A stretch of DNA of 64,000 nt from Vicinamibacterales bacterium (GTDB lineage: Bacteria; Acidobacteriota; Vicinamibacteria; Vicinamibacterales; JAMQPK01): NCBI GenBank assembly GCA_963825295.1, contig CAWGSZ010000002.1, positions 31,762-95,761 of the forward strand, in the 5' to 3' direction. The translations under genes and the position numbers were made by a program. The notes beneath the pieces are model-generated. The model did not search any database. It saw only the letters and a list, made by a program, of their open reading frames with translations, and was not told the DNA's origin. Shown here piece by piece: positions 1,389 to 59,733 of the stretch (within the stretch, counting starts at the first letter, position 1; each line of letters opens with the position of its first letter).

Positions 1389-2763
1389 TGAGACCAGGGA
1401 TTAGGGCAGGGATTAGGGATCGGGGATTAGGGATTGGGGCAGCGACGGGTGTCACGCTGATGCTCGCCGTGTTGGCGCCGCGCTCGGTGTCCGCGCAGAC
1501 CCCCGCGAATCTGCCTTCGCCGCGCCGCGGCTCCGGTGGCGACCGACGAACCCCACGAACCCGACGAACCCCACGAACCCTACGAACCCCACAAAGTCGT
1601 CCGACGTATCTGTTCCCCCGATCGAGTGCTGGTGGAAGACCGATCGCAGCGCGGTGAGCGTCGGCGAGCACTTCCAACTGACCCTGACGTGCGCGGTGCT
1701 CGCGACCGATCGGGTGTCGGTGGTGGTGGACGAGTCGAGCCTCGAACCGTCGGCGCTGCATTTGACGCCGTTCGAGATCATCGGCGGCCAGCGGTTTCGC
1801 GAGATCCTGAACGCGCCGCGGAAGTTCTTCCAGTACCAGTACACGATGCGCGTCCTCGGCGAGGAGTTCTTCGGCAAGGAAGTTCCGCTGCCGCGTCTGC
1901 AGATTACTTACAAGGTGCAGAACTCGCTGCAGGGCGGGGCGGCGCTCCAGGGCCGCGAGGCGCAGTATTCGCTCGTGCCGGTGCCCATCCGGGTGCTGTC
2001 GCTCGTTCCTCCAGGCGCCGTGGACATCCGCGATACCCCGAGCGACACGTTCGGCGACGTCGAGACGCGCCTCTTCCGATCGAACATCTTCCTTATTGTT
2101 GCCGCCGTGGCGTTTCTCGCCGCCGGCCTGATGGTGGTGATGCTCCTGGCGCGCGCGGCCGTCAGGCGGCGTGCGTTGACGGCGGCGCGCCATCGAACGG
2201 TCTCGTCGATGACCGTGCTCGGCGCGGCCATCCGCGAGCTCGCGATCGTGCGGGCGGAGAGCTCGCGCGCCGGTTGGACGGGCGAGCTGGCCGGGCGGGC
2301 GGCAGCGGCCGTGCGGCTGGCCGGGGCCGTCGCGTTGTCGCGTCCGGTGAGTCACAAGGAAGTGGATCGTCAAACGTCGCCCAGTGAAGGTCAGGTGGTT
2401 GCACCAGCCGGGCTCGCCACCCTGCGAGGGAAAGCCACGATGCTGTCGGCGGCCGTGACGCCTGAATCCTCTGTATCGAACGGCGATCCCCGCCCCGAAG
2501 GGCGTGGCGCCGAGTTGTGGCGATCGCTCAGCCAGTCGCTGGGTGTCTTCACGGCCGCAAGGTACACGCGCCCCTCGGCCAGCTCGGGGCGCCCCGATGC
2601 TGTTGAGGGGCGTAACGGCACGCTCGATCAGGCGGCGCTCGACTCGGCGCTGGCCGAAAGCCAGGACGCCGTGAAGCGGCTGCGTGTCCGACAGGTCCTT
2701 CGATTCGGCCGCAGGAAGCCGCACGCCGAAACCGCAGGCGCCCGACCAACATGGGCACGCTGA
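1385..2763 (+). CDS. BatD-like secreted/membrane protein, apparent frameshift between signal peptide and body
   Basis: ATG 1385 (ATGA overlap with the DUF58 stop) gives the signal peptide MMRPGIRAGIRDRGLGIGAATGVTLMLAVLAPRSVSAQ in frame 2. The body (PIECWWKTDRSAVSVGEHFQLTLTC..., ORF 1654..2763, one C-terminal TM helix) is in frame 1. Frame 1 has no start codon after its last stop at 1414-1416. The shift must lie between 1417 and 1657. The BatD assignment rests on position in the operon and architecture only. Confidence 0.5.
1397..1439 (+). repeat. GGGATTA-family tandem array with seven G-tracts (G-quadruplex motif)
   Basis: Read directly: GGG atta GGG ca GGG atta GGG atc GGGG atta GGG att GGGG. 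It lies in codons 5-18 of the downstream gene. Confidence 0.9.
1544..1588 (+). repeat. 9-bp tandem array NNACGAACC, 5 copies
   Basis: Read directly: cgacgaacc ccacgaacc cgacgaacc ccacgaacc ctacgaacc. It reads PTNPTNPTNPTNPT in the frame of the protein body. The same unit family occurs at 48876-48962. Confidence 0.9.
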
Positions 2764-3871: not shown

Positions 3872-4579
3872 ATGCGGCGCTCAATTCCAATTTTCGTCGT
3901 TGCCATCGTGTTCGCCCTGCTGGGCGGCGTCCTGCTGTCGGCGGGACTGTTCGAGCGCAGGATGGCCATTGCCCAGGAAGACATGGCGGTCCTCGACTTC
4001 ACCGATCCCGCGATTGAATACGCGAAGCTCGAGGAGGAGATTGCGGGGGTGCCCCTGGTCTCGGAAAGCGCGCTCAAGGACATTCACCGCCGGCGCGCCA
4101 CGCTTCAGTACTGGCAAAAAGACTATGCGGACCTCATCGAGGTGGCCCGCCAGGCGGCGACCACCGACGACGCCGCCTCGATCGATCCGGAGATGCGCGT
4201 GCTGGCGGCAAACGCCCTGTATCGCGTGGCGCAGCGCGGACCGCAGGATCGCGTGACGCTCCTCAGGAATCTCGACGCGGCGGTTCGCGCCTACAACGAG
4301 GCGCTGCGCGCGGGTGTCGAGCGGCAGGACGTCGCGTTCAACTACGAGCTGGCCGTGCGGATGCGCGAAGAGGTGGGCGCCGGCAAGCGGAAGGCGCTCC
4401 AGAACATGAAGGCGGAAGACGTCGAGAGCGATCCGAACATGCACGGCGATCCCGGCGAGCCGCCGAAGGATCTGAAGGTGGAGCAGTTCCAGATTCGGAT
4501 TCCGATGGATCCGAAGGAAATCAAGCAGAGCCAGGAACAGGCCGCCGGAACCGGCGCTGCCCGCCGGAAACGCGGCTGA
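3872..4579 (+). CDS. Membrane-anchored hypothetical protein in the BatC position of the operon
   Basis: ATG 3872 is preceded by AGGAG at 3862-3866. The product starts MRRSIPIFVVAIVFALLGGVLLSAG, followed by a helical acidic/basic region. This is the tail of ORF 2684..4579, whose upstream part overlaps the VWA gene out of frame. Confidence 0.6.
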   Translation: MRRSIPIFVVAIVFALLGGVLLSAGLFERRMAIAQEDMAVLDFTDPAIEYAKLEEEIAGVPLVSESALKDIHRRRATLQYWQKDYADLIEVARQAATTDDAASIDPEMRVLAANALYRVAQRGPQDRVTLLRNLDAAVRAYNEALRAGVERQDVAFNYELAVRMREEVGAGKRKALQNMKAEDVESDPNMHGDPGEPPKDLKVEQFQIRIPMDPKEIKQSQEQAAGTGAARRKRG

Positions 4580-4582
4580 TCA

Positions 4583-4612
4583 GGGATTAGGGACTGGGGA
4601 TTAGGGATTAGG
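4583..4612 (+). repeat. GGGATTA-family array (G-quadruplex motif) filling the spacer before the next start codon
   Basis: Read directly: GGG atta GGG act GGGG atta GGG atta GG. It ends 2 nt before GTG 4615. Confidence 0.9.
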
Positions 4613-9312: not shown

Positions 9313-9348
9313 GAAAAAGAGAAAGGGCGCCGGATCACTCCGGCGCCC
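9313..9348 (-). terminator. Intrinsic terminator downstream of actE
   Basis: The minus strand reads GGGCGCCGG agtgat CCGGCGCCC followed by TTTCTCTTTTTC. An adjacent perfect 20-bp palindrome CTTTTTCAGGCCTGAAAAAG lies at 9300-9319. Confidence 0.65.
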
Positions 9349-9382
9349 CCTCAGCCCTTAGCCCTTAGCCCTCAGCCTTTAC
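9348..9382 (-). repeat. 7-bp array CCCTTAG/CCCTCAG, 5 copies (G-tracts on the minus, sense strand)
   Basis: Read directly: ccctcag cccttag cccttag ccctcag cctttac. It starts at the actE stop codon. The minus strand reads GG ctga GGG ctaa GGG ctaa GGG ctga GGGGG. Confidence 0.9.
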
Positions 9383-10274: not shown

Positions 10275-10287
10275 AGTGAATCTCAAA

Positions 10288-10357
10288 CTAGAATCTAAAA
10301 ACTAAAAACTAGAAACTACAACCGAGAACTGAAAACTGAAAACCGACGACTGAAAAC
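10288..10357. repeat. AT-rich 7-bp array (CTAGAAT/CTAAAAA/TGAAAAC), 10 units, filling the actC-actD spacer
   Basis: Read directly: ctagaat ctaaaaa ctaaaaa ctagaaa ctacaac cgagaac tgaaaac tgaaaac cgacgac tgaaaac. Confidence 0.9.
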
Positions 10358-11748
10358 TAATGAGCAGGATGCACGTCGCCCGCCACCTGCGTTCCGATGC
10401 TCGCCGGGTGATGCTCCGCCACCGTGTGTTTGGCAACCGAGTACCCCTCTTCGATCTCCCAGATGGAAATCATCGGGCTGAACTTGGCGAAGAGGAAATA
10501 CAACAGGACGAACAGGCCCAGCGTGCCCGATGCGATAGTCGCTTCAATGAGCGACGGGAAGTACGTACCGTAGTTGTACGGCAGGTACGGATGCGTGAGC
10601 GTAGGCACGATAATCAGGAACCGCTCCAGCCACATGCCGACGAGAATGCAGGTCGACGCGACGAAGATGAGCGGAATCGTCCGCAGCTTCTTGATCGCCA
10701 GAATCGGGAACGGGATCACGAAGTTGCACACGACCATCAGCCAGAAGAGCGGGGCGAAGCGGCCCGAAATCTTCGACCAGAAGACCGGCATCTCGGGCGC
10801 CTCGTTGCCGTACCACGTCACGAGGTACTCCGTGAACGTGAAGTAGAACCACAGCAGGCTCATCGCGAACAGCATTTTCGCGAGGTTGTCGAAATGGATC
10901 GGCAGCAGGTACTGCTCGAGCTTGAAGTACTTCCGGATAAGCACCATGGCGATCAGCAGCGCGGCGATACCCGAGAAGATGGCCCCGACGACGAAGTACG
11001 GTCCGAAGATGGTGCTGCGCCACATCGGCATCAGCGTCATCGCGAAGTCCCACGACACGATCGTGTGAACCGACACCGCGACCGGAATGATGATGAGCGC
11101 CATGATGGAGATGGCTTTTTCCAGCCGCACCCATTCCCGTTCCGTTCCCCGCCATCCGAGCGCGAGCATGCGGTACATCTTCTTGCGCCAGCCGGTGGCT
11201 TTATCGCGCGCGACGGCCATGTCGGGAATCATCGGCAGGTACAGGTAGGTGACGCTGCCGGTGAGGTAGGTGTTGATGGCGATGAAATCCCACATCAGCG
11301 GCGACTGGAAGTTCGGCCACAGGTACCGGTTGTTGGGCACCGGGATCATCCAGTAGAACAGCCACGCGCGTCCGAGGTGGACGATGGGAAAGAGCGAGCC
11401 GGTACAGAGGGCGAATGTGGTGATCGCTTCCGCGCACCGGGTGATCGGCCTGCGCCACTCGGCCTGCACGACCCGCAGAATGGCCGAGATGAGCGTGCCG
11501 GCGTGGCTGATGCCGATCCAGAAGACGAACGTCGTGATGTAGAGGCCCCAGAACGACGGGCGGTTCTTGCCCGCCATGCCGATGCCGTATTTCAGCTGAA
11601 AGAACCAGGCCACGAACACCATGCCCGTCACCGCGAGGAGCACGGCGAGCATGATGTAGTACTTCGGTCCGGTCTTGAAGAGCGGACCCAGCAGGTCGCG
11701 ATTGATCTGGGCTTCCGTTGGATGAAAGGGTGCCGGAGTCTGAGCCAC
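10357..11748 (-). CDS. actC: NrfD/PsrC-family integral membrane quinol-interacting subunit (ActC-like)
   Basis: ORF 10357..11748, 463 aa. It is polytopic, and its position directly after the Fe-S subunit (1-nt gap) is typical of ACIII and polysulfide-reductase-like complexes. Confidence 0.85.
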   Translation of the reverse strand: MAQTPAPFHPTEAQINRDLLGPLFKTGPKYYIMLAVLLAVTGMVFVAWFFQLKYGIGMAGKNRPSFWGLYITTFVFWIGISHAGTLISAILRVVQAEWRRPITRCAEAITTFALCTGSLFPIVHLGRAWLFYWMIPVPNNRYLWPNFQSPLMWDFIAINTYLTGSVTYLYLPMIPDMAVARDKATGWRKKMYRMLALGWRGTEREWVRLEKAISIMALIIIPVAVSVHTIVSWDFAMTLMPMWRSTIFGPYFVVGAIFSGIAALLIAMVLIRKYFKLEQYLLPIHFDNLAKMLFAMSLLWFYFTFTEYLVTWYGNEAPEMPVFWSKISGRFAPLFWLMVVCNFVIPFPILAIKKLRTIPLIFVASTCILVGMWLERFLIIVPTLTHPYLPYNYGTYFPSLIEATIASGTLGLFVLLYFLFAKFSPMISIWEIEEGYSVAKHTVAEHHPASIGTQVAGDVHPAH

Positions 11749-12443: not shown

Positions 12444-12506
12444 CCGAATCTAAAATCTAGAATCTACAATCTGAAATCTTCGAACTGATAACTGAAAACT
12501 GAAACC
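12444..12506. repeat. AT-rich 7-bp array (TAGAATC/TGAAAAC family), 9 units, filling the actB1-actB2 spacer
   Basis: Read directly: ccgaatc taaaatc tagaatc tacaatc tgaaatc ttcgaac tgataac tgaaaac tgaaacc. Confidence 0.9.
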
Positions 12507-17961: not shown

Positions 17962-18541
17962 GGTTCGCCTCATCTTCTTCGAACAATCGATCGGCTGCGA
18001 GACGTGCGCGCCGACCAGGCGCGCGCTCGAGCAGATCGTCGACGAGAACGAGCACGTGGAGCTCGAAGCGCTCAATCTCGTGCTCGACAGGGAGAAAGCC
18101 GCCGAGTACGGCGTGGATCGGGTGCCCGCGGTTATCATCGAGGCGCCCGGACGCGATCGCATTCGCTACTACGGCGCGCCGCTGGGCTACGAGTTGCCCA
18201 CGCTGGCGGAAGCCGTGCACATGGCGGCGACCGGCGAAACGCGGCTCAGCGACGAGAGCCGCGCGCAGCTGAAAGCATTGACGACACCCGTGCACCTGCA
18301 GGTGTTCTACACGCCAGGCTGCGTCTATTGCCCGCGGATGATTTCGCTGGCGAATCAAGCCGCCATCGAAAGTCCGCTCGTGACCAGCGTGGCCATCGAT
18401 GCCGCGGAGTTCCCGGATCTCGTCCGCCGCTACAACGTGAACGGCGTGCCCAAGACGGTGATCAACGACTCGCTCGAGCTCATGGGAGCCGCGCCGGAAG
18501 AGGACTTCATGGCGGCTCTTGCCCAATCCACCGGGGAATAG
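17945..18541 (+). CDS. Two-domain thioredoxin-fold protein disulfide oxidoreductase (glutaredoxin-like)
   Basis: ORF 17945..18541. The CETC and CVYC motifs sit in two thioredoxin-like halves. It overlaps the upstream gene by 17 nt. Confidence 0.75.
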   Translation: MTSSSKVRLIFFEQSIGCETCAPTRRALEQIVDENEHVELEALNLVLDREKAAEYGVDRVPAVIIEAPGRDRIRYYGAPLGYELPTLAEAVHMAATGETRLSDESRAQLKALTTPVHLQVFYTPGCVYCPRMISLANQAAIESPLVTSVAIDAAEFPDLVRRYNVNGVPKTVINDSLELMGAAPEEDFMAALAQSTGE

Positions 18542-18564
18542 GGAATAGGGATTGGGGATTAGGG
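18533..18564 (+). repeat. GGGAATA/GGGATTA array with five G-tracts (G-quadruplex motif)
   Basis: Read directly: GGGG aata GGG aata GGG att GGGG atta GGG. It contains the upstream TAG stop (18539-18541) and the downstream TTG start (18552). Confidence 0.9.
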
Positions 18565-20574: not shown

Positions 20575-22293
20575 ATGCACCTGCTCGACTGGGGAGTGAT
20601 GGCCGCCTACATCGCGTGGCTCGTGTGGGACGGCGTCAAGCGCACCAAGCTCGAGCGCACCACCGAATCGTACTTCCTGGCGAACCGATCGATGCCGTGG
20701 TGGGCCGTCGGTCTCTCGGTGATGGCCACGCAGTTGAGCGCCATCACGCTGGTCGGCACGACGGGGCAGGGCTACAACGACGGCCTGCGGTTCGTGCAGT
20801 TCTATTACGGGCTGCCGCTCGCGATGGTGATTCTGTGCGTGACGCTCGTGCCGTTCTTCTATCGAGCCAGGGTCTACACGGCGTACCAGTACCTGGAGCG
20901 GCGCTTCGATCTCAAAACACGCACGCTGACGAGCGGGCTGTTTCTCGTATCGCGCGCGATGTCGTGCGGCGCGATCGCCGCCGCCCCGGCGGTCGTGCTG
21001 TCGGTCGTGCTCGGATGGAGCGTCACGATGACGACGCTGCTGATTCTCGTGCCGGCGGTGATTTACACGATGCTCGGCGGCGTGCAGGCGGTGACCTGGA
21101 CCGACGTCAAGACGATGAGCCTGACGGTGGTGGCGCTCGTCATCGCCGTAGTGTTCCTCGTGCGGGGACTGCCCGAAGGCGTGGGCGTGGACGATGCGCT
21201 GGCAATCGCCGGCGGCACGGGCCGGCTGCAGGCCTTCGATCTGCGCTTCACGCTGACGGAAACCTACACCTTCTGGTCGGGCATGCTGGGCGGCCTCTTC
21301 CTGATGCTGTCCTATTTCGGATGCGATCAGAGCCAGGTGCAGCGGTATCTCACGGCGAAATCCGAGGATGCCGCCAAGACGTCGTTGTTGATGAGCGCGT
21401 ACTGGAAGATTCCTCTCCAGGTGCTCGTCCTCGTCGTCGGCGTCCTCACGTTCGTGTTCTATCTGTTCAACCAGCCGCCGCTCTTGTTCAACCCGATTCA
21501 CGACCAGCGCGTGCGGACGGGCGAATCGGCGCCGGCATATGCGGCGCTGCAGCGCGAGTTCCAGACGACGTTCGACGCGCGCCGGCAGGCGGCGGTCGAG
21601 ATGGCCGCGGCCCGCCACGCGCACGATGTGCGCGAACAGGCGCGCGCGACCGACGAGTTCAGCCGGCAGGATCGGACGTTGCGATCGATCAGGACGAAGG
21701 CGGCATCGCTCGTCAAACAAACGACGGGCGACTCGAATTACAACGACGTGAACTACGTGTTTCCCACCTGGATTATGACGGCGCTTCCGATCGGCATCGT
21801 GGGGCTGTGGATCGCCGCCATCATTACGGCCGCGACAGATTCGATTGCGGCCGAGCTGAACTCGCTGTCGACCGCCTCGGTCATCGACTTCTACAAGCGG
21901 CTGGCGCAGCCTTCGGCATCGGACGCGCACTATCTGTTTGTGTCGCGGGCCACCACCGGGTTCTGGGGTGTGTTCGCCGGCTTTGTCGCCGTGTACGCGA
22001 GCAGCCTCGGGTCGCTCATCGAGGTGGTGAACCGGTTCGGGTCGTTTTTCTACGGCTCGATTCTCGGGGTGTTCATGCTGGCGATTCTCACGCGCCGCGC
22101 GACGGGTACGGGAGCCTTTGTTGGCCTCCTCACGGGCATGGTCGCGGTGGCGTCGGTTGCCTTCGGCCGGCCGGACATTTCGTTCCTGTGGCACAACGTG
22201 ATCGGCGCCGTCGTGGTCTTCAGCGTTGGTTCGCTGGTGAGCCTCTTTACAGATCACGCTCTTACAGAAGATCAGAAGATCAGAAGAAAATAA
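20575..22293 (+). CDS. Sodium:solute symporter family transporter
   Basis: ORF 20575..22293, 572 aa, polytopic. It has an SSF-like N-terminus (YFLANRSMPWWAVGLSVMATQLSAITLVGT). Confidence 0.85.
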   Translation: MHLLDWGVMAAYIAWLVWDGVKRTKLERTTESYFLANRSMPWWAVGLSVMATQLSAITLVGTTGQGYNDGLRFVQFYYGLPLAMVILCVTLVPFFYRARVYTAYQYLERRFDLKTRTLTSGLFLVSRAMSCGAIAAAPAVVLSVVLGWSVTMTTLLILVPAVIYTMLGGVQAVTWTDVKTMSLTVVALVIAVVFLVRGLPEGVGVDDALAIAGGTGRLQAFDLRFTLTETYTFWSGMLGGLFLMLSYFGCDQSQVQRYLTAKSEDAAKTSLLMSAYWKIPLQVLVLVVGVLTFVFYLFNQPPLLFNPIHDQRVRTGESAPAYAALQREFQTTFDARRQAAVEMAAARHAHDVREQARATDEFSRQDRTLRSIRTKAASLVKQTTGDSNYNDVNYVFPTWIMTALPIGIVGLWIAAIITAATDSIAAELNSLSTASVIDFYKRLAQPSASDAHYLFVSRATTGFWGVFAGFVAVYASSLGSLIEVVNRFGSFFYGSILGVFMLAILTRRATGTGAFVGLLTGMVAVASVAFGRPDISFLWHNVIGAVVVFSVGSLVSLFTDHALTEDQKIRRK

Positions 22294-22320
22294 TGGTCTT
22301 CTGACCTTTTGATCTTCTGT
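22266..22320. repeat. 8-bp array AGAAGATC, 3 copies, followed by its reverse complement TCTTCTGA, 3 copies (hairpin, terminator-like)
   Basis: agaagatc agaagatc agaagaaa, ataatgg, tcttctga ccttttga tcttctgt. The stem is about 23 bp with 3 mismatches. The left arm encodes the symporter tail EDQKIRRK. Confidence 0.85.
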
Positions 22321-36586: not shown

Positions 36587-36655
36587 GATGGCAATGGCGG
36601 ATGGCAGATGGCAACGACAACCATCTGCCATCTGCCATGTGCCATCTGCCATGAC
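36587..36655. repeat. Dyad-symmetric 7-bp array: GATGGCA, 4 copies, then CCATCTG, 5 copies (long hairpin between convergent genes)
   Basis: gatggca atggcg gatggca gatggca, acgacaa, ccatctg ccatctg ccatgtg ccatctg ccatgac. Confidence 0.9.
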
Positions 36656-38762: not shown

Positions 38763-39537
38763 ATGGCCCGGCCCAAAGCCCCCACCTCCGACACCCGGCA
38801 CCGCATCCTCGCCGCCGCCGCCGCCGAGTTCGGCGACCACGGCTTCGCCGCGACCACCATCGACCGCATCGCCAGGCGCGCACGCGTCAACAAGGCGATG
38901 ATTTACTACCACTTTCCCAACAAGCGCGCCCTCTACACCTCCATCATTCGCGACGTCTTCCGGCCCATCACCGAACGCACCCGGGCCGTCATCGCCGACG
39001 ATCTCCCCGCCGATCGCAAGCTCGACCGCGTGATCGAAACCATCGTCGCCTCGCTCGACGAATCGGCGCATTTCCTCCCGATCTTCCTGCGCGAAATCGC
39101 CGACGGCGGCGCGCATCTGGGACCCGACGAGCTGGCCCTCATCGCCGGCATGTTTGCCGCGGTCAGCGGCGTCATCGCCGAGGGCGGCAGGCAGAAGGTC
39201 TTTCAGCCCGTCCATCCCGCGCTGGCGCACTTCACGATCATCGCGCCGCTCGTGATGTTCCGTGCGGCCGCACCCGTCCGCGCGCGGATCAGAAGCCGTA
39301 CGGCACGTCGATATTCCCGAAGCCGACTCGGCCACGCTCGTCCGGCATCTGCAAATGGTGGCAAGGCGCATGCTGAGTCCGGAGCGTGAGAGTCCGGAGA
39401 GTCTCGAGAGTCGGAAGAGTCTCGAGAGTCAAAAGAGTCCCGAGAGTCAGAAGAGTCTTGGGAGTCCGAAGAGTCCCGAGAGTCCTGAGAGTCACAAGAG
39501 TCCAAGTGTCAGAGAGTCGGCGAAGAGAGGCTTATGA
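38763..39537 (+). CDS. TetR family transcriptional regulator, apparent frameshift, with a repeat-encoded C-terminal tail
   Basis: It has the HTH region ILAAAAAEFGDHGFAATTIDRIARRARVNKAMIYYHF. After about 39270-39300 the listed frame becomes Arg-rich with A/T third positions. The +1 frame (ORF 39262..39537) reads AVRHVDIPEADSATLVRHLQMVARRML with G/C third positions. That frame runs through the 9-bp array to a stop overlapping the next ATG. Confidence 0.7.
39388..39504 (+). repeat. 9-bp tandem array RAGAGTCNN, 13 copies
   Basis: gagagtccg gagagtctc gagagtcgg aagagtctc gagagtcaa aagagtccc gagagtcag aagagtctt gggagtccg aagagtccc gagagtcct gagagtcac aagagtcca. Degenerate units flank it on both sides. 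Confidence 0.95.
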
Positions 39538-46073: not shown

Positions 46074-46148
46074 AAGAGATTAAGAGATTAGAAGAATAGA
46101 ATCTGTTCAGAAAAGACTCGTCGTCTTCTGATTCTTCTGACCTTCTGT
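46074..46148. repeat. 8-bp array AAGAGATT/AGAAGAAT, 4 copies, then TCTTCTGA-type units, 3 copies (same family as 22266-22320)
   Basis: aagagatt aagagatt agaagaat agaatctg, ttcagaaaagactcgtcg, tcttctga ttcttctga ccttctgt. It is preceded by gccaaa gccaaa. Confidence 0.85.
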
Positions 46149-48414: not shown

Positions 48415-48986
48415 TGAGCCTGTACGAGATCCCGTTGACGACAATCGACGGCCAGACGGTCACGCTCGATCGCTACCGTGGGAAGAGGCTCCTCATCGTG
48501 AACGTGGCGAGCCGGTGCGGGTTCACCCCTCAATACAAGGGACTGGAAGAGCTCTACCGGCGGCGCAAGGACGATCTCGTCGTCCTCGGGTTCCCCTGCA
48601 ATCAATTCGGCCGTCAGGAGCCTGGCAGCAACGAGGAGATACGCCAGTTCTGCGACGACTATTGCAGCGTGACGTTTCCGCTGTTCGCCAGAATCGAGGT
48701 CAACGGCGCGAACGCGCACCCGCTGTTTCGCTTTCTGAAAGCGGAGAAAAGAGGATTTCTGGGACGCGAAGCGATTGCGTGGAACTTCACGAAGTTCCTC
48801 GTTGGACCCGGCGGCGACGTGCTGAAGCGCTACGGGTCGCGCGTGAAGCCGGAAGCCATCGAGAAGGAGCTGTACGGGTTCGTCAGGTTCGTGAGGTTCG
48901 TGGGTTCGTCAGGTTCGACGAACTTACGAACCGACGAACTTGACGAACCCGACGAACCGACAAGGTATTCTCATGACAGACGATGA
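48414..48986 (+). CDS. gpx: Glutathione peroxidase (Cys type) with a repeat-encoded C-terminal extension
   Basis: This is the tail of ORF 48354..48986, starting at ATG 48414 (TGATG overlap). Motifs: NVASRCGFTPQY, LGFPCNQFGRQEPG and WNFTKFLV. The last ~35 aa (GFVRFVRFVGSSGSTNLRTDELDEPDEPTR...) are translated from the 9-bp array. Confidence 0.85.
   Translation: MSLYEIPLTTIDGQTVTLDRYRGKRLLIVNVASRCGFTPQYKGLEELYRRRKDDLVVLGFPCNQFGRQEPGSNEEIRQFCDDYCSVTFPLFARIEVNGANAHPLFRFLKAEKRGFLGREAIAWNFTKFLVGPGGDVLKRYGSRVKPEAIEKELYGFVRFVRFVGSSGSTNLRTDELDEPDEPTRYSHDRR
48876..48962. repeat. Dyad-symmetric 9-bp array: GGTTCGTNN, 5 copies, then NNACGAACC-type units, 5 copies
   Basis: gggttcgtc aggttcgtg aggttcgtg ggttcgtc aggttcgac, then gaacttac gaaccgac gaacttgac gaacccgac gaaccgaca. 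The arms can pair over about 40 nt. Confidence 0.9.
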
Positions 48987-49566
48987 GACGTTCCACCGCA
49001 TCCTGGTGCTCATCTCGCTGGTGATTTTTCCGATCGCGATCTTCCATCGCATCAAGTCACAGGCGACCGGTGAAAGCCTCGACCGCTGGCAGGAAGGCCC
49101 CTTCATTCTTTTCACGCTGAGAGCGATCGGCGGCGCCACCATGATCGGATTCATCGCGTATCTCGTGAATCCAGCACGGATGGCATGGTCGTCGATGCCG
49201 CTCCCTGTGTGGTTGCGCTGGGTCGGTATCGGACTCGACGTGCTCGCAGGATTGTTGCTCGTCTGGACTTTCCACTGCCTTGGAAAGAACCTCACCGATA
49301 CCGTCGTGACCCGCCGTGAACACACGCTCGTGACCAGGGGACCGTATCGTTGGGTCCGTCATCCGTTCTACGATGCCGTGGCGCTGTTACTGACGGCCAA
49401 TGCCCTCGCGGCGGCCAACTGGTTCTTGTTCGTCGGCGGTGCGCTCGCGCTTGCGCTGATCGTGCTGCGCACGAAAAAGGAAGAGGATCGTCTGGTCGCG
49501 CGGTTCGGCGATTCTTATCGTGATTACATGAATCGCACCGGACGATTCCTCCCGAAGCTGGGATGA
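48973..49566 (+). CDS. Isoprenylcysteine carboxyl methyltransferase (ICMT/PEMT-like) family membrane protein
   Basis: ORF 48940..49566, with the likely ATG at 48973 (MTDDETFHRILVLISL). It has the motif RGPYRWVRHPFY. Confidence 0.75.
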   Translation: MTDDETFHRILVLISLVIFPIAIFHRIKSQATGESLDRWQEGPFILFTLRAIGGATMIGFIAYLVNPARMAWSSMPLPVWLRWVGIGLDVLAGLLLVWTFHCLGKNLTDTVVTRREHTLVTRGPYRWVRHPFYDAVALLLTANALAAANWFLFVGGALALALIVLRTKKEEDRLVARFGDSYRDYMNRTGRFLPKLG

Positions 49567-54238: not shown

Positions 54239-55221
54239 TGTACCGGCAACTCGGTAGAAGCGGCTTGAGGGTATCGGCGATTGGCCTGGGGTGCATGGGC
54301 ATGTCGCAGAGCTACGGGACGCCCGACGCCGACGAATCCATTCGCACGATCCATCGCGCCCTCGACCTCGGCGTCACGCTCGTGGATACGGCGAACGTGT
54401 ACGGCAAGGGAGAGAACGAGGAGCTCGTGGGCCGCGCCATTCGCGACCGGCGGAAAGAGGTGGTGCTGGCGACGAAGTTCGGCCTCAGCATGGGTGCCAG
54501 CGCGATGTCGGCGGGCGTTGACGCCAGGGCCGAGCTCGTCGGGCCGTCGTGCGACGCGAGCCTCGCCCGTCTCGGGGTGGACGTCATCGATCTCTACTAC
54601 CTCCACCGCGTCGATCCCGGGGTGCCCATCGAAGAGACGGTTGGGGCGATGGCGGATCTCGTTCGCGCAGGGAAAGTGCGCTTTCTCGGGCTGTCGGAAG
54701 CGGGTCCAGACACATTGCGCCGCGCGGCGAAGATTCATTCCATCGCCGCGCTTCAGTCGGAGTTCTCGCTCTGGTCGAGAGATCCGGAGCGGGGCGTGCT
54801 CTCAGCGTGCCGCGAGCTTGGCATCGGCTTCGTGCCATTCAGCCCGCTCGGCCGCGGGTTCCTGACCGGCACGGTGAAGGACACCGGCGGTCTCGTGGAG
54901 AACGACGTCCGCCGGCATCTGCCGCGCTTTCAGCAGGAGAACATTTCCCGGAACGTGCGTCTTGTCGAAGGTCTCGAGGGCATGGCGCGCTCGAAGGGCT
55001 GCTCGGCGGCGCAGCTCGCGCTCGCGTGGCTGCTGCACAAGGGCGACGACATCGTGCCCATTCCCGGCACGAAGCGCCTCCGGTACCTGGAAGAGAACGT
55101 CGAAGCCGTGAACATCACGCTGACGCCTCGAGAAATGAGCGAGCTCGATGACTCGTTTCAGGCCGGCGCCGTCGCGGGCGAGCGTTACGGACCTGAGAGC
55201 CTGAAGTTGGTGGAAAACTAG
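54235..55221 (+). CDS. Aldo/keto reductase
   Basis: It starts [24 protein letters not shown], with the ATG overlapping the corrected upstream stop (ATGA). Other motifs are LVDTANVYG and LGLSEAG. Confidence 0.85.
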
Positions 55222-55270
55222 AATCTAAAATCTAGAATCTAGAACTAAAATCTAGAATCTGAATAGAATC
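55219..55270 (+). repeat. AT-rich 7-bp array TAGAATC/TAAAATC, about 7 units; the first unit contains the AKR stop codon
   Basis: Read directly: tagaatc taaaatc tagaatc tagaac taaaatc tagaatc tgaatag aatcttc. Confidence 0.9.
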
Positions 55271-55278
55271 TTCGAGCA

Positions 55279-55572
55279 ATGCACTACCTGCTTTTTTACG
55301 AAGCCGGGGCGGATTATGCGGAACGGCGGCAGCCGTTCCGGGTGGCACATCTCCAGCACGCGCGCAATGCGGTCGCACGCGGCGAGCTCGTGCTCGGCGG
55401 CGCGCTGGCCAATCCGATCGATGGAGCCGTGCTGCTGTTCCGCGGCGATTCGTCAGCCGCCGCGGAGCAGTTTGCGAAAACCGATCCCTACGTGACGAAC
55501 GGCGTCATTCAGCGATGGCACGTGCGCGAATGGACGACGGTTGTGGGTAACGATGCTGAAACTAAAATCTAA
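55279..55572 (+). CDS. YciI family protein
   Basis: ORF 55279..55572. It reads MHYLLFYEAGADYAERRQPFRVAHLQHARNAVARGELVLGGAL. The last codons (AETKI) come from the next array. Confidence 0.8.
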   Translation: MHYLLFYEAGADYAERRQPFRVAHLQHARNAVARGELVLGGALANPIDGAVLLFRGDSSAAAEQFAKTDPYVTNGVIQRWHVREWTTVVGNDAETKI

Positions 55573-55610
55573 AAACTAGAATCTAGAATCTGGAATCTGA
55601 AACCTTAAGA
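55556..55610 (+). repeat. AT-rich 7-bp array CTAAAAT/CTAGAAT, about 8 units
   Basis: Read directly: ctgaaa ctaaaat ctaaaaa ctagaat ctagaat ctggaat ctgaaac cttaaga. Confidence 0.9.
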
Positions 55611-58550: not shown

Positions 58551-58620
58551 GATCTAGAAACCAGGAACTGAGATCCAGAGATTTCAGATTCTAGTTTGTA
58601 GATTTTAGTTTCTAGATTCA
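58551..58620. repeat. Dyad arrangement of the CTAGAAA-family 7-mers: 4 forward units then 6 reverse-complement units
   Basis: ctagaaa ccaggaa ctgagat ccagag, then agatttc agattct agtttgt agatttt agtttct agattca. tctagaaac (58553) pairs with gtttctaga (58608). It abuts the stop of the YVTN gene. Confidence 0.85.
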
Positions 58621-59733
58621 GCGAATAGCCACGCCCCACGGACTCCGGCCGCCGGGCACCGTCGCGATGACCGCCATCGTCTCGGCGTCGATGACGGAGA
58701 TGTCGTTCGACGGGCCGTTGGCGGTGTAGAGGCGCTTGCCGTCGGGCGAAATGCCTACACCCCACGGCCGCTGGCCCGCCTTCACGGATCCCACCACCTC
58801 GTCCTTGGCCGTATCGATGGCAAGGAGCATCGTGCCCCGGCCGGTGGTGACGTACACGCGCTTGCCGTCGGGCGCGGCGATGACGCCCATCGGTCTCGCG
58901 AGCTCGCCGGTGATCTTGAGCGTCTTGGTCACCGAGTGATTTTTCGTGTTGATGACGTGCACGGTGCCGCCGTTCTCGGCCGTGATGTACGCCTTCGAGC
59001 TGTCTGGTAGAAATTCCGACGATCGGGGGCGCGCGCCGACCTCGAACTGCTTGATCGCCTTGTTGGTGGCGGTGTCGATGACCGTAATCTGATTGTCCTC
59101 TTCCGACGTGACGTACACCCACTGACCGTTCGGGCTCGTCGTGACGCCCTCCGGCTCGCCGCCGACCTTCACTTCCCCGATCACCTTGTTGCTGGCGACG
59201 TCGAGGATGCTCGCGACGCCCGCGTCCTCGTTCGACACGTAGACCTTCGAGCCGTCCGCGCTCAGCGAAATTTGCTCGGGGTCCGATCCGCTGGTGAGCA
59301 CGGTCGTGACTTTCCGCGCCGCGATGTCGACCACGCCTATGCCGTCGGCAGTCCGGTCGGGGGGCGGTAGCTTGCTCTCATCCGTTCCCGGTGGCGCCAT
59401 CGGCGACCCGCTGAGCGCGACGAACAGCTTCGTCCCGTCCGGGCTCACCTTGATGCCCCTCGGTCGCTTGCCGAGCGGGATCGTCGTGACGACCTGATTC
59501 GTGCCGCCATCGATGACAGTCAGATCGCCGCCGATTTCATTCGTGACATAGACGTAATACGGCGCTTTCGGCGGCTCCGGCGCGGGTGCCGCCGGCGGAG
59601 GAGCGGCAGCCTGTTCAGGCTGCGGCTGACCACCGCCGCACCCGGAAATCGCGGCCAGCAAGATCAGCGAAGAAAGCGTGACGCGCGCGTTCAGAGCTAA
59701 TCCCCAATCCCTAATCCCTAATCCCTTGCTCAT
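58618..59733 (-). CDS. YVTN-family beta-propeller repeat lipoprotein
   Basis: ORF 58618..59733. It has the lipobox LLAAISGC and repeats YVTNE, YVSNED, YVTSEED, YITAENG and YVTTGRG. A GGAGAG ribosome-binding site lies 6 nt upstream of the ATG. Confidence 0.8.
   Translation of the reverse strand: MSKGLGIRDWGLALNARVTLSSLILLAAISGCGGGQPQPEQAAAPPPAAPAPEPPKAPYYVYVTNEIGGDLTVIDGGTNQVVTTIPLGKRPRGIKVSPDGTKLFVALSGSPMAPPGTDESKLPPPDRTADGIGVVDIAARKVTTVLTSGSDPEQISLSADGSKVYVSNEDAGVASILDVASNKVIGEVKVGGEPEGVTTSPNGQWVYVTSEEDNQITVIDTATNKAIKQFEVGARPRSSEFLPDSSKAYITAENGGTVHVINTKNHSVTKTLKITGELARPMGVIAAPDGKRVYVTTGRGTMLLAIDTAKDEVVGSVKAGQRPWGVGISPDGKRLYTANGPSNDISVIDAETMAVIATVPGGRSPWGVAIR
59702..59725 (-). repeat. GGGATTA array (four G-tracts on the minus, sense strand) in codons 4-11 of the YVTN gene
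   Basis: The plus strand reads cccc aat ccc taat ccc taat ccc. The minus strand reads GGG atta GGG atta GGG att GGGG. Confidence 0.9.

Follow-up and report, generated by a model that had tools for sequence, protein, structure and literature searches.

The DNA analysed here is a stretch of 64,000 nt from a Vicinamibacterales bacterium (contig CAWGSZ010000002.1, positions 31,762 to 95,761), hereafter called the window. In it the gene encoding a glutathione peroxidase (gpx) runs through an inverted pair of short tandem arrays into the start of a gene encoding a methyltransferase of the ICMT/PEMT family (the ICMT-like gene). We think it likely that this pair of arrays is a non-coding element, built of a 7-nt core (GGTTCGT) and a variable spacer of 1-3 nt, and is one of the many 7-9-nt "long simple sequence repeats" found at gene junctions throughout the lineage. 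The 35 residues which the array adds to the glutathione peroxidase (Gpx) are, judging from the sequence comparisons given below, a variable by-product of a non-coding element abutting the end of the gene and not a conserved protein segment.

The inverted array and the tail of the glutathione peroxidase

As described in the earlier note on this DNA, about five GGTTCGTNN units are followed by about five NNACGAACC units, and both series can be read directly in the sequence (48877-48961). The 5' arm contains four exact GGTTCGT cores (48877, 48886, 48895 and 48903) and a fifth one truncated to GGTTCG (48912), while the cores of the 3' arm, ACGAACC or ACGAACT, are placed at 48917, 48926, 48934, 48943 and 48952. 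Tandem Repeats Finder (TRF) reported GGTTCGTCA x 4.7 at 48877-48917 and the complementary unit x ~5 at 48915-48961, with a 17-nt double-unit periodicity in both arms. Moreover, the core spacing of one arm is nearly the mirror image of that of the other (Table 1). The window has 24 copies of the motif ACGAACC, whereas shuffled sequences have 10.3 +/- 3.1, and 12 of these 24 copies fall in two arrays, the one at gpx and another at 1546-1588.

The pairing of the two arms, which had also been proposed, was supported by folding. RNA of the + strand (48860-48975) is predicted to fold to -68.4 kcal/mol (z = -8.56), a stability reached by 0 of 200 shuffled sequences, and the hairpin has 34 bp of stem in total. 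The reverse complement folds to only -57.3 kcal/mol, because three G.U pairs turn into C.A mismatches. For the array alone (48874-48964) the values are -61.2 kcal/mol for the sense and -50.7 kcal/mol for the antisense strand; the G.U pairs thus make the sense strand approximately 11 kcal/mol more stable.

The open reading frame (ORF) of gpx does read through the array into the start of the ICMT-like gene, as had been noticed: it contains no stop before the TGA at 48984-48986 and overlaps the downstream gene by 14 nt. The ATG at 48973 of the ICMT-like gene is likewise called in relatives L204-L209. The conserved part of Gpx ends at the Gly codon 48876-48878 (...IEKELYG), and residues 156-190 are the array-derived and read-through tail, for which the predicted tryptic peptides include FVGSSGSTNLR and TDELDEPDEPTR. 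A stop codon missed before the array, one of the two findings that the earlier note had named as able to refute it, is unlikely, because an identical ORF of 190 aa with the same 14-nt overlap is present on an independently assembled Logan contig of 1.7 kb (ERR11630401). The same protein is deposited in NCBI/ENA, encoded by a contig of 794 kb.

The other such finding, a tail shared by orthologues devoid of repeats, was not encountered either. The 120 Gpx homologues listed (71-96% identity) all have 154-184 aa and cover approximately 82% of the query, and the tail is present in none of them. The majority of those aligned end in ...IEKELYG, and the tail is an insertion which Gpx homologues do not have in common. 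The cluster at 90% identity to which the Gpx of the window belongs has 44 members; among those listed, most have 159 aa and end in ELYGFVGS, and two have 155 aa and end in ELFG.

The units of the gpx array are 9, 9, 8 and 9 nt long and the tail reads FVR FVR FVG SSG..., so the reading frame drifts through the array. The GGTTCGT/ACGAACC core is free of stop codons in every frame, and stops come only from the spacers. Across 20 arrays of this family 74 of the 120 frames (62%) were found without a stop, and the read-through of gpx is therefore what would be expected by chance.

Distribution of the arrays in the lineage

At the junction of gpx and the ICMT-like gene three further arrangements were found in relatives (Table 1). 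A sister strain carries a homologous array which is identical in 7 contigs of different samples. Its first unit has 8 nt and not 9, which brings a TAG into frame after 4 residues of tail. The right arm is shorter than that of the window by one 17-nt double unit, leaving the arms unbalanced (5 units vs 3), and the hairpin reaches -38 kcal/mol. Compared with L002, where no array exists, the DNA of the window is longer by a block of 87 nt, in frame and free of stops, and both ORFs reach the same TGA overlapping the ICMT start. As L002 is closer to the window in the ICMT-like gene (98.2%) than L204 is (92%), the strains bearing the array are not mutually closest in the downstream gene. The palindrome may have been lost in L002, or it may have collapsed during assembly of this contig, which has several indels; recombination at the junction may also have occurred. 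A search for Gpx in genome contigs gave distant homologues (54-66% identity), the best in one Vicinamibacterales metagenome-assembled genome (MAG; 66%), and no orthologous junction was recovered from it.

Two side observations concern this same junction. The identity pattern of L211-L213 (gpx 94.6%, ICMT-like gene 80%) is the reverse of that of L002 (92% and 98%), which suggests that a boundary of recombination lies between the two genes, at the site of the hairpin or array. In addition, contigs L001 and L210 end inside the gpx array. Arrays of this type thus act as break points in short-read assembly, and the junctions holding them are probably under-represented in metagenome assemblies.

The gpx array is far from alone. 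The window contains 28 tandem arrays of period 6-10, against 2.8 expected (maximum 8) in Markov-1 random sequences. Seven of the 28 are GC-rich coding repeats. The other 21 (GC <=0.64) lie outside ORF cores in 19 cases, although cores make up 82% of the window, and the two exceptions both belong to the GGTTCGT/ACGAACC family with its stop-free core. The units of these AT-richer arrays include GGGATTA, CTAGAAT, AAACTAA, AACTGAA, AGTGAAA, CAGAAGAT, GATGGCA, CGCACCTAT, GAGAGTCNN x 13 and GGTTCGTNN; the arrays often occupy the entire spacer between genes and some hold the stop codon within their first unit. Related soil contigs (GC 0.62-0.66) have a comparable density, with 4-6 arrays per 10 kb, and in a more distant Vicinamibacterales MAG locus the density is no more than 0.8 per 10 kb. 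At four other junctions compared with those of L204, whose coding DNA diverges by 6-8% from that of the window, the orthologous arrays keep their place and most of their sequence and differ by indels the size of units. The suggestion of a special period-9 element that enters coding sequence has consequently to be replaced by that of one family among many 7-9-nt arrays filling intergenic gaps.

Several other arrays of the window deserve mention. The largest (39388-39518) consists of GAGAGTCNN / AAGAGTCNN x ~13 with an 18-nt double-unit period; its start falls within the TGA stop of the preceding gene, and it takes up nearly all of a spacer of 145 nt. Five heptamer arrays of the GGGATTAG type (1396-1439, 4578-4612, 9348-9381 on the - strand, 18534-18564, and 59697-59726 on the - strand) are always sense-oriented and placed at or just within the 5' end of the downstream gene, and two of them are translated as the N-terminal region (GIRAGIRDRGLGIG and MSKGLGIRDWGL). 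The AT-rich heptamer arrays at 10285-10360 and 12447-12504 fill whole spacers between minus-strand genes and include AACTGAA/TAACTGA-type units (10313-10360 and 12483-12504). Arrays of CTAGAAT/CTAAAAT are located at three junctions (55218-55271, 55562-55602 and 58582-58619). The TAG stop (55219-55221) of an ORF of 1044 aa is part of the first CTAGAAT unit, and the arrays at 55562 and 58582 are kept in place in L204.

Copies of the GGTTCGT/ACGAACC family were sought in metagenomes with (ACGAACCNN)x3 as the query. Inverted pairs were found in L101, L112, L119, L124, L144, L154, L121, L147 and L135 and direct arrays in L090, L108, L134, L148 and L156; many further matches were set aside as unrelated acidic DEP/EP coding repeats or as belonging to other taxa. 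The inverted pairs lie between co-directional or convergent genes, and unit number and spacer differ at every locus. Other ORFs also end in arrays, namely the symporter gene of the window (22265, ..EDQKIRRK*) and, in L135, the genes for DNA alkylation repair (..GVRRVR*) and for a 23S-rRNA-IVP protein. The gpx tail is hence the long end of a common pattern of array-derived C-termini.

The last of these loci is unusual in its arrangement. In L135 (9500-10222) inverted GGTTCGT and ACGAACC arrays 530 bp apart enclose the minus-strand IVP gene (PF05635, E = 6e-17). The arrays are flanked by a RidA-like gene and the DNA-alkylation-repair gene, which converge, and both minus-strand ORFs have tails that extend into the arrays. 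By analogy with the IVP genes located in rRNA stem-loops, this suggests an IVP gene carried in the loop of an array hairpin.

The inverted pairs share one polarity. The G- or purine-rich arm comes first in 10 of the 10 pairs scored for strand skew (36587 and 48877 in the window; L101, L112, L121 with two pairs, L135, L141, L147 and L154), the second pair of L121 and that of L141 being of other unit families. The same order was seen by eye at 22265 and 46074 in the window and in L119, L124, L137 and L144, and none of the pairs of this lineage examined in either way has the opposite order. As a palindrome with its C-rich arm first would fold equally well, this polarity is a real regularity.

A family with the C-rich arm first, CACGAACCA ... 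GTTCGTGTG, was met in contigs L104, L107 and L123 and rejected as a different element; these contigs have a GC content of 0.71. Together with L163, which shares an upstream motif, they carry the element TTGACCACGAACCACACGAACCACACGAACC. In L104, L107 and L123 an inverted GTTCGTGTG array, C-rich arm first, follows approximately 40 nt downstream of the motif, which is highly conserved between contigs. This element may be a regulatory site of another taxon.

The second array reported from the window, at 1544-1588, is real and its reading as PTN is right for the frame of the protein body, whereas in the window this frame is disconnected from the start and the signal peptide. Between 1385 and 1660 the start and signal peptide (MMRPGIRAGIRDRGLGIGAATGVTLMLAVLAPRSVSAQ..., frame of ATG 1385) are in a different frame from the PTN segment and the body, and upstream of 1654 the frame of the body contains no start codon. 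It is at the 5' edge of the ACGAACC array that the frame breaks, through either a real array-associated indel (a pseudogene or a phase-variation-like state) or a sequence error. In the orthologue of L090 signal peptide, (PTN)x11 and conserved body form one intact frame, the copy number thus varying by strain (5 units in the window, 11 in L090). In distant homologues no more than a few residues separate the signal peptide from the conserved ...PIECWWKTDR, and the closest of them retains only a decayed TNRTNPTNATNAP. The PTN segment had been taken for an insertion, and by this comparison of sequences it is a lineage-specific one, in frame in the L090 orthologue. The name "BatD-like" found no support in Pfam or NCBIfam and was not confirmed; the gene downstream is VWA/BatA-like. 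The suggestion that such arrays enter genes without breaking the frame needs correction in view of the units of 9, 9, 8 and 9 nt in gpx, the early TAG of the sister strain and the broken frame of this gene.

Table 1. Coordinates of the features discussed in the window, and the gpx-ICMT junction in relatives
Feature	Position	Strand	Basis or description
Glutathione peroxidase ORF, 190 aa	48414..48986	+	Pfam GSHPx (PF00255), E = 2.7e-41, residues 3-109
5' arm, GGTTCGTNN x ~4.7	48877..48917	+	core spacing 9, 9, 8, 9 nt; TRF, exact core matches
3' arm, NNACGAAC(C/T) x ~5	48917..48961	+	core spacing 8, 8, 9, 9 nt; TRF, core matches
Predicted RNA hairpin	48875..48951	+	18 + 16 bp stem, 2/1 internal bulge, 6-nt loop (48911-48916), 3 G.U pairs
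Block of 87 nt (29 codons) absent from L002	48878..48964	+	between TACGG and GGTATTCTCATG; DNA alignment, edges ambiguous by 1-2 nt
Probable ribosome-binding region (AAGG) and ATG (48973) of the ICMT/PEMT-family gene	48962..48975	+	directly 3' of the hairpin; putative Shine-Dalgarno role, from sequence
ICMT/PEMT-family methyltransferase gene	48973..49566	+	Pfam ICMT/PEMT
Direct array, ACGAACCNN x 5.2	1544..1592	+	reads (PTN)5 in frame of the "BatD-like" protein body
Inverted pair, CAGAAGAT x 3 / ATCTTCTG	22265..22320	+	5' arm forms the last ~7 codons (..EDQKIRRK), just before the TAA stop of a solute-symporter gene
Inverted pair, GATGGCA x 4 / CCATCTG x 4.6	36587..36652		between convergent genes
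Looser inverted pair, AAGAGATT... / TCTTCTGA...	46074..46147	+	spacer before an adh_short gene; position kept in L204
Junction in L204-L210 (a single strain, from at least 7 samples)			array homologous to that of the window and identically placed (TACGG / ... / GACAAGGTATTCTCATG); core spacing of the left arm 8, 9, 8, 9; right arm of only three units; in-frame TAG in second unit
Junction in L211-L213			no array; 60-nt spacer with an ordinary 9-bp GC hairpin, -27.6 kcal/mol
Junction in L002, L003			no spacer; gpx and ICMT-like genes overlap
Nucleotide identity of L204 to the window			gpx 93.5%, ICMT gene 92%
Nucleotide identity of L002 (noisy contig) to the window			gpx 92%, ICMT gene 98.2%
Nucleotide identity of L211 to the window			gpx 94.6%, ICMT gene 80%

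Origin and possible function

In relatives gpx ends after ...ELYG, precisely at the place which the array occupies in the window, and there the gpx of the window has no stop; the ORF therefore continues into the array. As the 87-nt block is a multiple of three and free of stops, translation would reach the TGA overlapping the ICMT start, adding the 35 residues. Growth of the array may have proceeded by replication slippage, one or two units at a time, because the right arm of L204 lacks one 17-nt double unit and the indels are unit-sized. The mirror pattern of the arms could be due to inverted duplication or template switching, the latter being an established mutational mechanism in quasipalindromes, or it could reflect selection for pairing.

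By analogy, the element probably acts as RNA, in the form of a long and stable stem which the co-transcript of gpx and the ICMT-like gene would make immediately before the ribosome-binding site of the latter. This is suggested by that position, by the ordinary hairpin found at the same junction in L211-L213, by the better folding of the sense strand and by the placement of all the inverted pairs behind gene ends. In the manner of REP (repetitive extragenic palindromic) sequences and BIMEs (bacterial interspersed mosaic elements), the stem could be a barrier to 3'-exonucleases, a substrate for a double-strand-specific RNase or an attenuator lacking a U-tract. In the window, ribosomes reading to the old overlapping TGA would melt the stem, which would restore translational coupling from gpx to the ICMT-like gene. 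In the sister strain the early TAG would leave the stem intact.

A number of observations speak against such a role. The stem is followed by ACGAACCGACAAGG and not by a U-tract. The gain of sense over antisense folding is not general, the other inverted pairs ranging from -11 to +10 kcal/mol; the G.U strand asymmetry (10.5 kcal/mol in the gpx array and 5.2 kcal/mol in that of the sister strain) was for this reason rejected as a general sign of selection at the RNA level, since it fails in other pairs. Full-length pairing is not strictly maintained, as the unequal arms of the sister strain and its weaker hairpin show. Moreover, the closest relative by the ICMT-like gene, L002, is devoid of the array, although its contig has indels and the palindrome may be collapsed there. 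Finally, no function has been found for the analogous arrays of Xanthomonas and Nostoc (PMC4692102).

Some of these points favour a substantial, if on balance unlikely, alternative, a neutral mutational by-product. Replication or repair would then yield arrays of 7-9 nt and these would be tolerated where selection is weak, hairpin and tail being incidental. The many unrelated unit sequences within one genome are consistent with this, as are the unbalanced arms of the sister strain, the presence or absence of the array among near relatives and the lack of a known function for the Xanthomonas and Nostoc repeats (PMC4692102). The arrays also reach right to stop and start codons, some stops lying inside the first unit, as if they were bounded only by coding constraint. 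Nevertheless, neutrality accounts poorly for arrays which keep their position and largely their sequence between strains with 6-8% coding divergence, for the recurrence of the same few unit families at many loci and for the ordinary hairpin which another relative has at this junction. The strict polarity of the inverted pairs and the sense-oriented GGGATTAG arrays at gene starts would also be hard to obtain from undirected slippage.

That polarity leaves some room, though not much, for a directed system. A lineage-specific factor might add or recognise 7-nt cores with a fixed polarity, either by templated 3'-end addition and joining or as an RNA-binding or RNA-processing protein, and so make a genome-wide "punctuation" of operons. 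If this improbable system existed it would account for the order of the arms, for arrays kept in place and for the IVP gene within a pair of arrays, and the gpx tail would be its visible side effect.

That a small mobile element, similar to a MITE (miniature inverted-repeat transposable element), a REP or a foldback element and moved by a transposase acting in trans, was inserted at the end of gpx appears very improbable. In its favour, the comparison with L002 shows a clean presence or absence of 87 nt between TACGG and GGTATTC, the GGTTCGT/ACGAACC family occurs at many unrelated loci, and one inverted pair encloses the 23S-rRNA-IVP gene. However, the element is not of fixed length, as it differs between strains, and it has neither a unique internal sequence nor a clear target-site duplication; unit number and spacer change from locus to locus, arrays of the same unit exist in a single orientation, and orthologous arrays are stably inherited. 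No transposase was noticed near any copy, although no systematic search was made.

We regard it as extremely unlikely that the 35-residue tail, and with it the PTN linker, is a selected disordered extension modifying the function or localisation of Gpx. The ORF is open and in frame to the same TGA as in the relative without the array, it was found again exactly in a second assembly, and the (PTN)n linker is in frame in the intact orthologue of L090; furthermore, tandem repeats give rise to disordered regions in other systems, Borg elements among them. These facts have to be set against a tail that is found in no listed homologue, is cut after 4 residues in the sister strain, drifts in frame within the array and has a peptide sequence without counterpart elsewhere, in a family of arrays of which 62% of frames are open by chance. 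An assembly artefact (palindromic chimera or collapsed repeats), to which the ends of L001 and L210 inside the array and the indel-bearing, array-less L002 might point, can practically be dismissed given the identical 190-aa ORF on an independent Logan contig, the homologous array identical in 7 contigs of different samples and the occurrence of the family in many unrelated metagenomes.

Comparison with known repeat systems

Palindromes of the REP/BIME type are abundant in the intergenic and intercistronic regions of enterobacteria, where, within operon transcripts, they stabilise the upstream mRNA and can attenuate downstream expression. REPs are unit palindromes of 20-40 nt with a conserved sequence, mobilised by RAYT (REP-associated tyrosine) transposases. 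They serve as the working analogy for the function of the gpx array, although they are not made of tandem 7-9-nt units. Membership in this class was rejected, as the gpx stem consists of tandem units which differ between loci and not of a palindrome with a fixed consensus. An intrinsic (Rho-independent) terminator was rejected as well: the stem is present but lacks the U-tract, and a scan found no site at the array. A tRNA-derived origin of the GGTTCGA motif was discarded because the window has no tRNA. In Rfam the window has no matches at the gathering thresholds, and locally only generic hairpins (microRNA precursors) matched below threshold.

With tandem units of 5-11 nt in runs longer than chance (~4.7 and ~5 copies), the gpx array belongs among the long simple sequence repeats. 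These are sporadic across phyla, with heptamers dominant, according to Mrazek et al. 2007 as summarised in PMC4679880. In the same summary, units that are multiples of three are those found inside coding regions, expandable without truncation, and polymerase slippage is the mechanism proposed (Mrazek et al. 2007, in PMC4679880). As presented there this class is a statistical one and not a mechanism, and inverted pairs and the capture of a stop codon fall outside its definition.

Direct repeats of the heptamer TAACTGA have been described in marine Beggiatoaceae, cyanobacteria and Bacteroidetes (MacGregor 2015, PMC4679880). They are intergenic and lie directly before start codons or over the ends of upstream ORFs, with one inverted example near an ORF end, and a role in translational regulation at 5' ends has been proposed (PMC4679880). 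The window carries AACTGAA/TAACTGA-type arrays too, at the positions given above, as in Beggiatoaceae. These repeats differ from the gpx array in that their unit is another one, they are almost all direct and the role proposed concerns 5' ends.

The closest likeness is to the GGGAATC heptamer arrays of Xanthomonas and the GGGGA(C/T)T arrays of Nostoc, which are genome-wide, strongly non-coding and placed beside ORF ends (Rehm et al. 2015, PMC4692102). Each Xanthomonas genome has 70-75 inverted GGGAATC pairs, always convergent and with the G-rich arm first; related genomes agree in where the arrays lie and in whether they are single or inverted, whereas the lengths vary, and the arrays are mostly transcribed (PMC4692102). 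The arrays studied here resemble them in their non-coding bias at ORF ends (19/21), in their convergent pairs and in a position and type which are conserved with varying copy number, as compared between the window and L204 at the gpx junction and four other junctions. The gpx array differs in its 7-nt core with a 1-3-nt spacer (period 8-9), in holding only GG, in arms that abut to form one 34-bp stem, in a stop codon taken over so that the array is formally translated and in belonging to an uncultured soil lineage. As the unit has only GG, no G-quadruplex is expected at the gpx array, and GGTTCGTNN was rejected as a G-quadruplex GGGNATC repeat, for which at least 4 G-tracts of at least 3 G are needed. 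The GGGATTAG-type arrays of the window would qualify and resemble the G-quadruplex-type GGGGA(C/T)T repeats of Nostoc.

In the literature no description of such arrays was found for Acidobacteria or Vicinamibacterales. The present observations widen the range of intergenic repeats of 5-11 nt and of their inverted pairs, which are strictly convergent, beyond Xanthomonas and cyanobacteria to an uncultured and probably acidobacterial lineage of soil. They also bear on annotation, since ORFs of this lineage can be extended or broken by arrays (the gpx tail, the symporter tail and the BatD-like gene); C- and N-termini called through arrays should not be counted as real protein features without evidence, and the translated gpx tail is a by-product relevant to annotation rather than a new protein feature. 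Moreover, one junction offers four natural variants, namely an array that is read through, one that contains a stop, an ordinary hairpin and the lack of any spacer, which could be used for testing the effect of the hairpin on operon expression.

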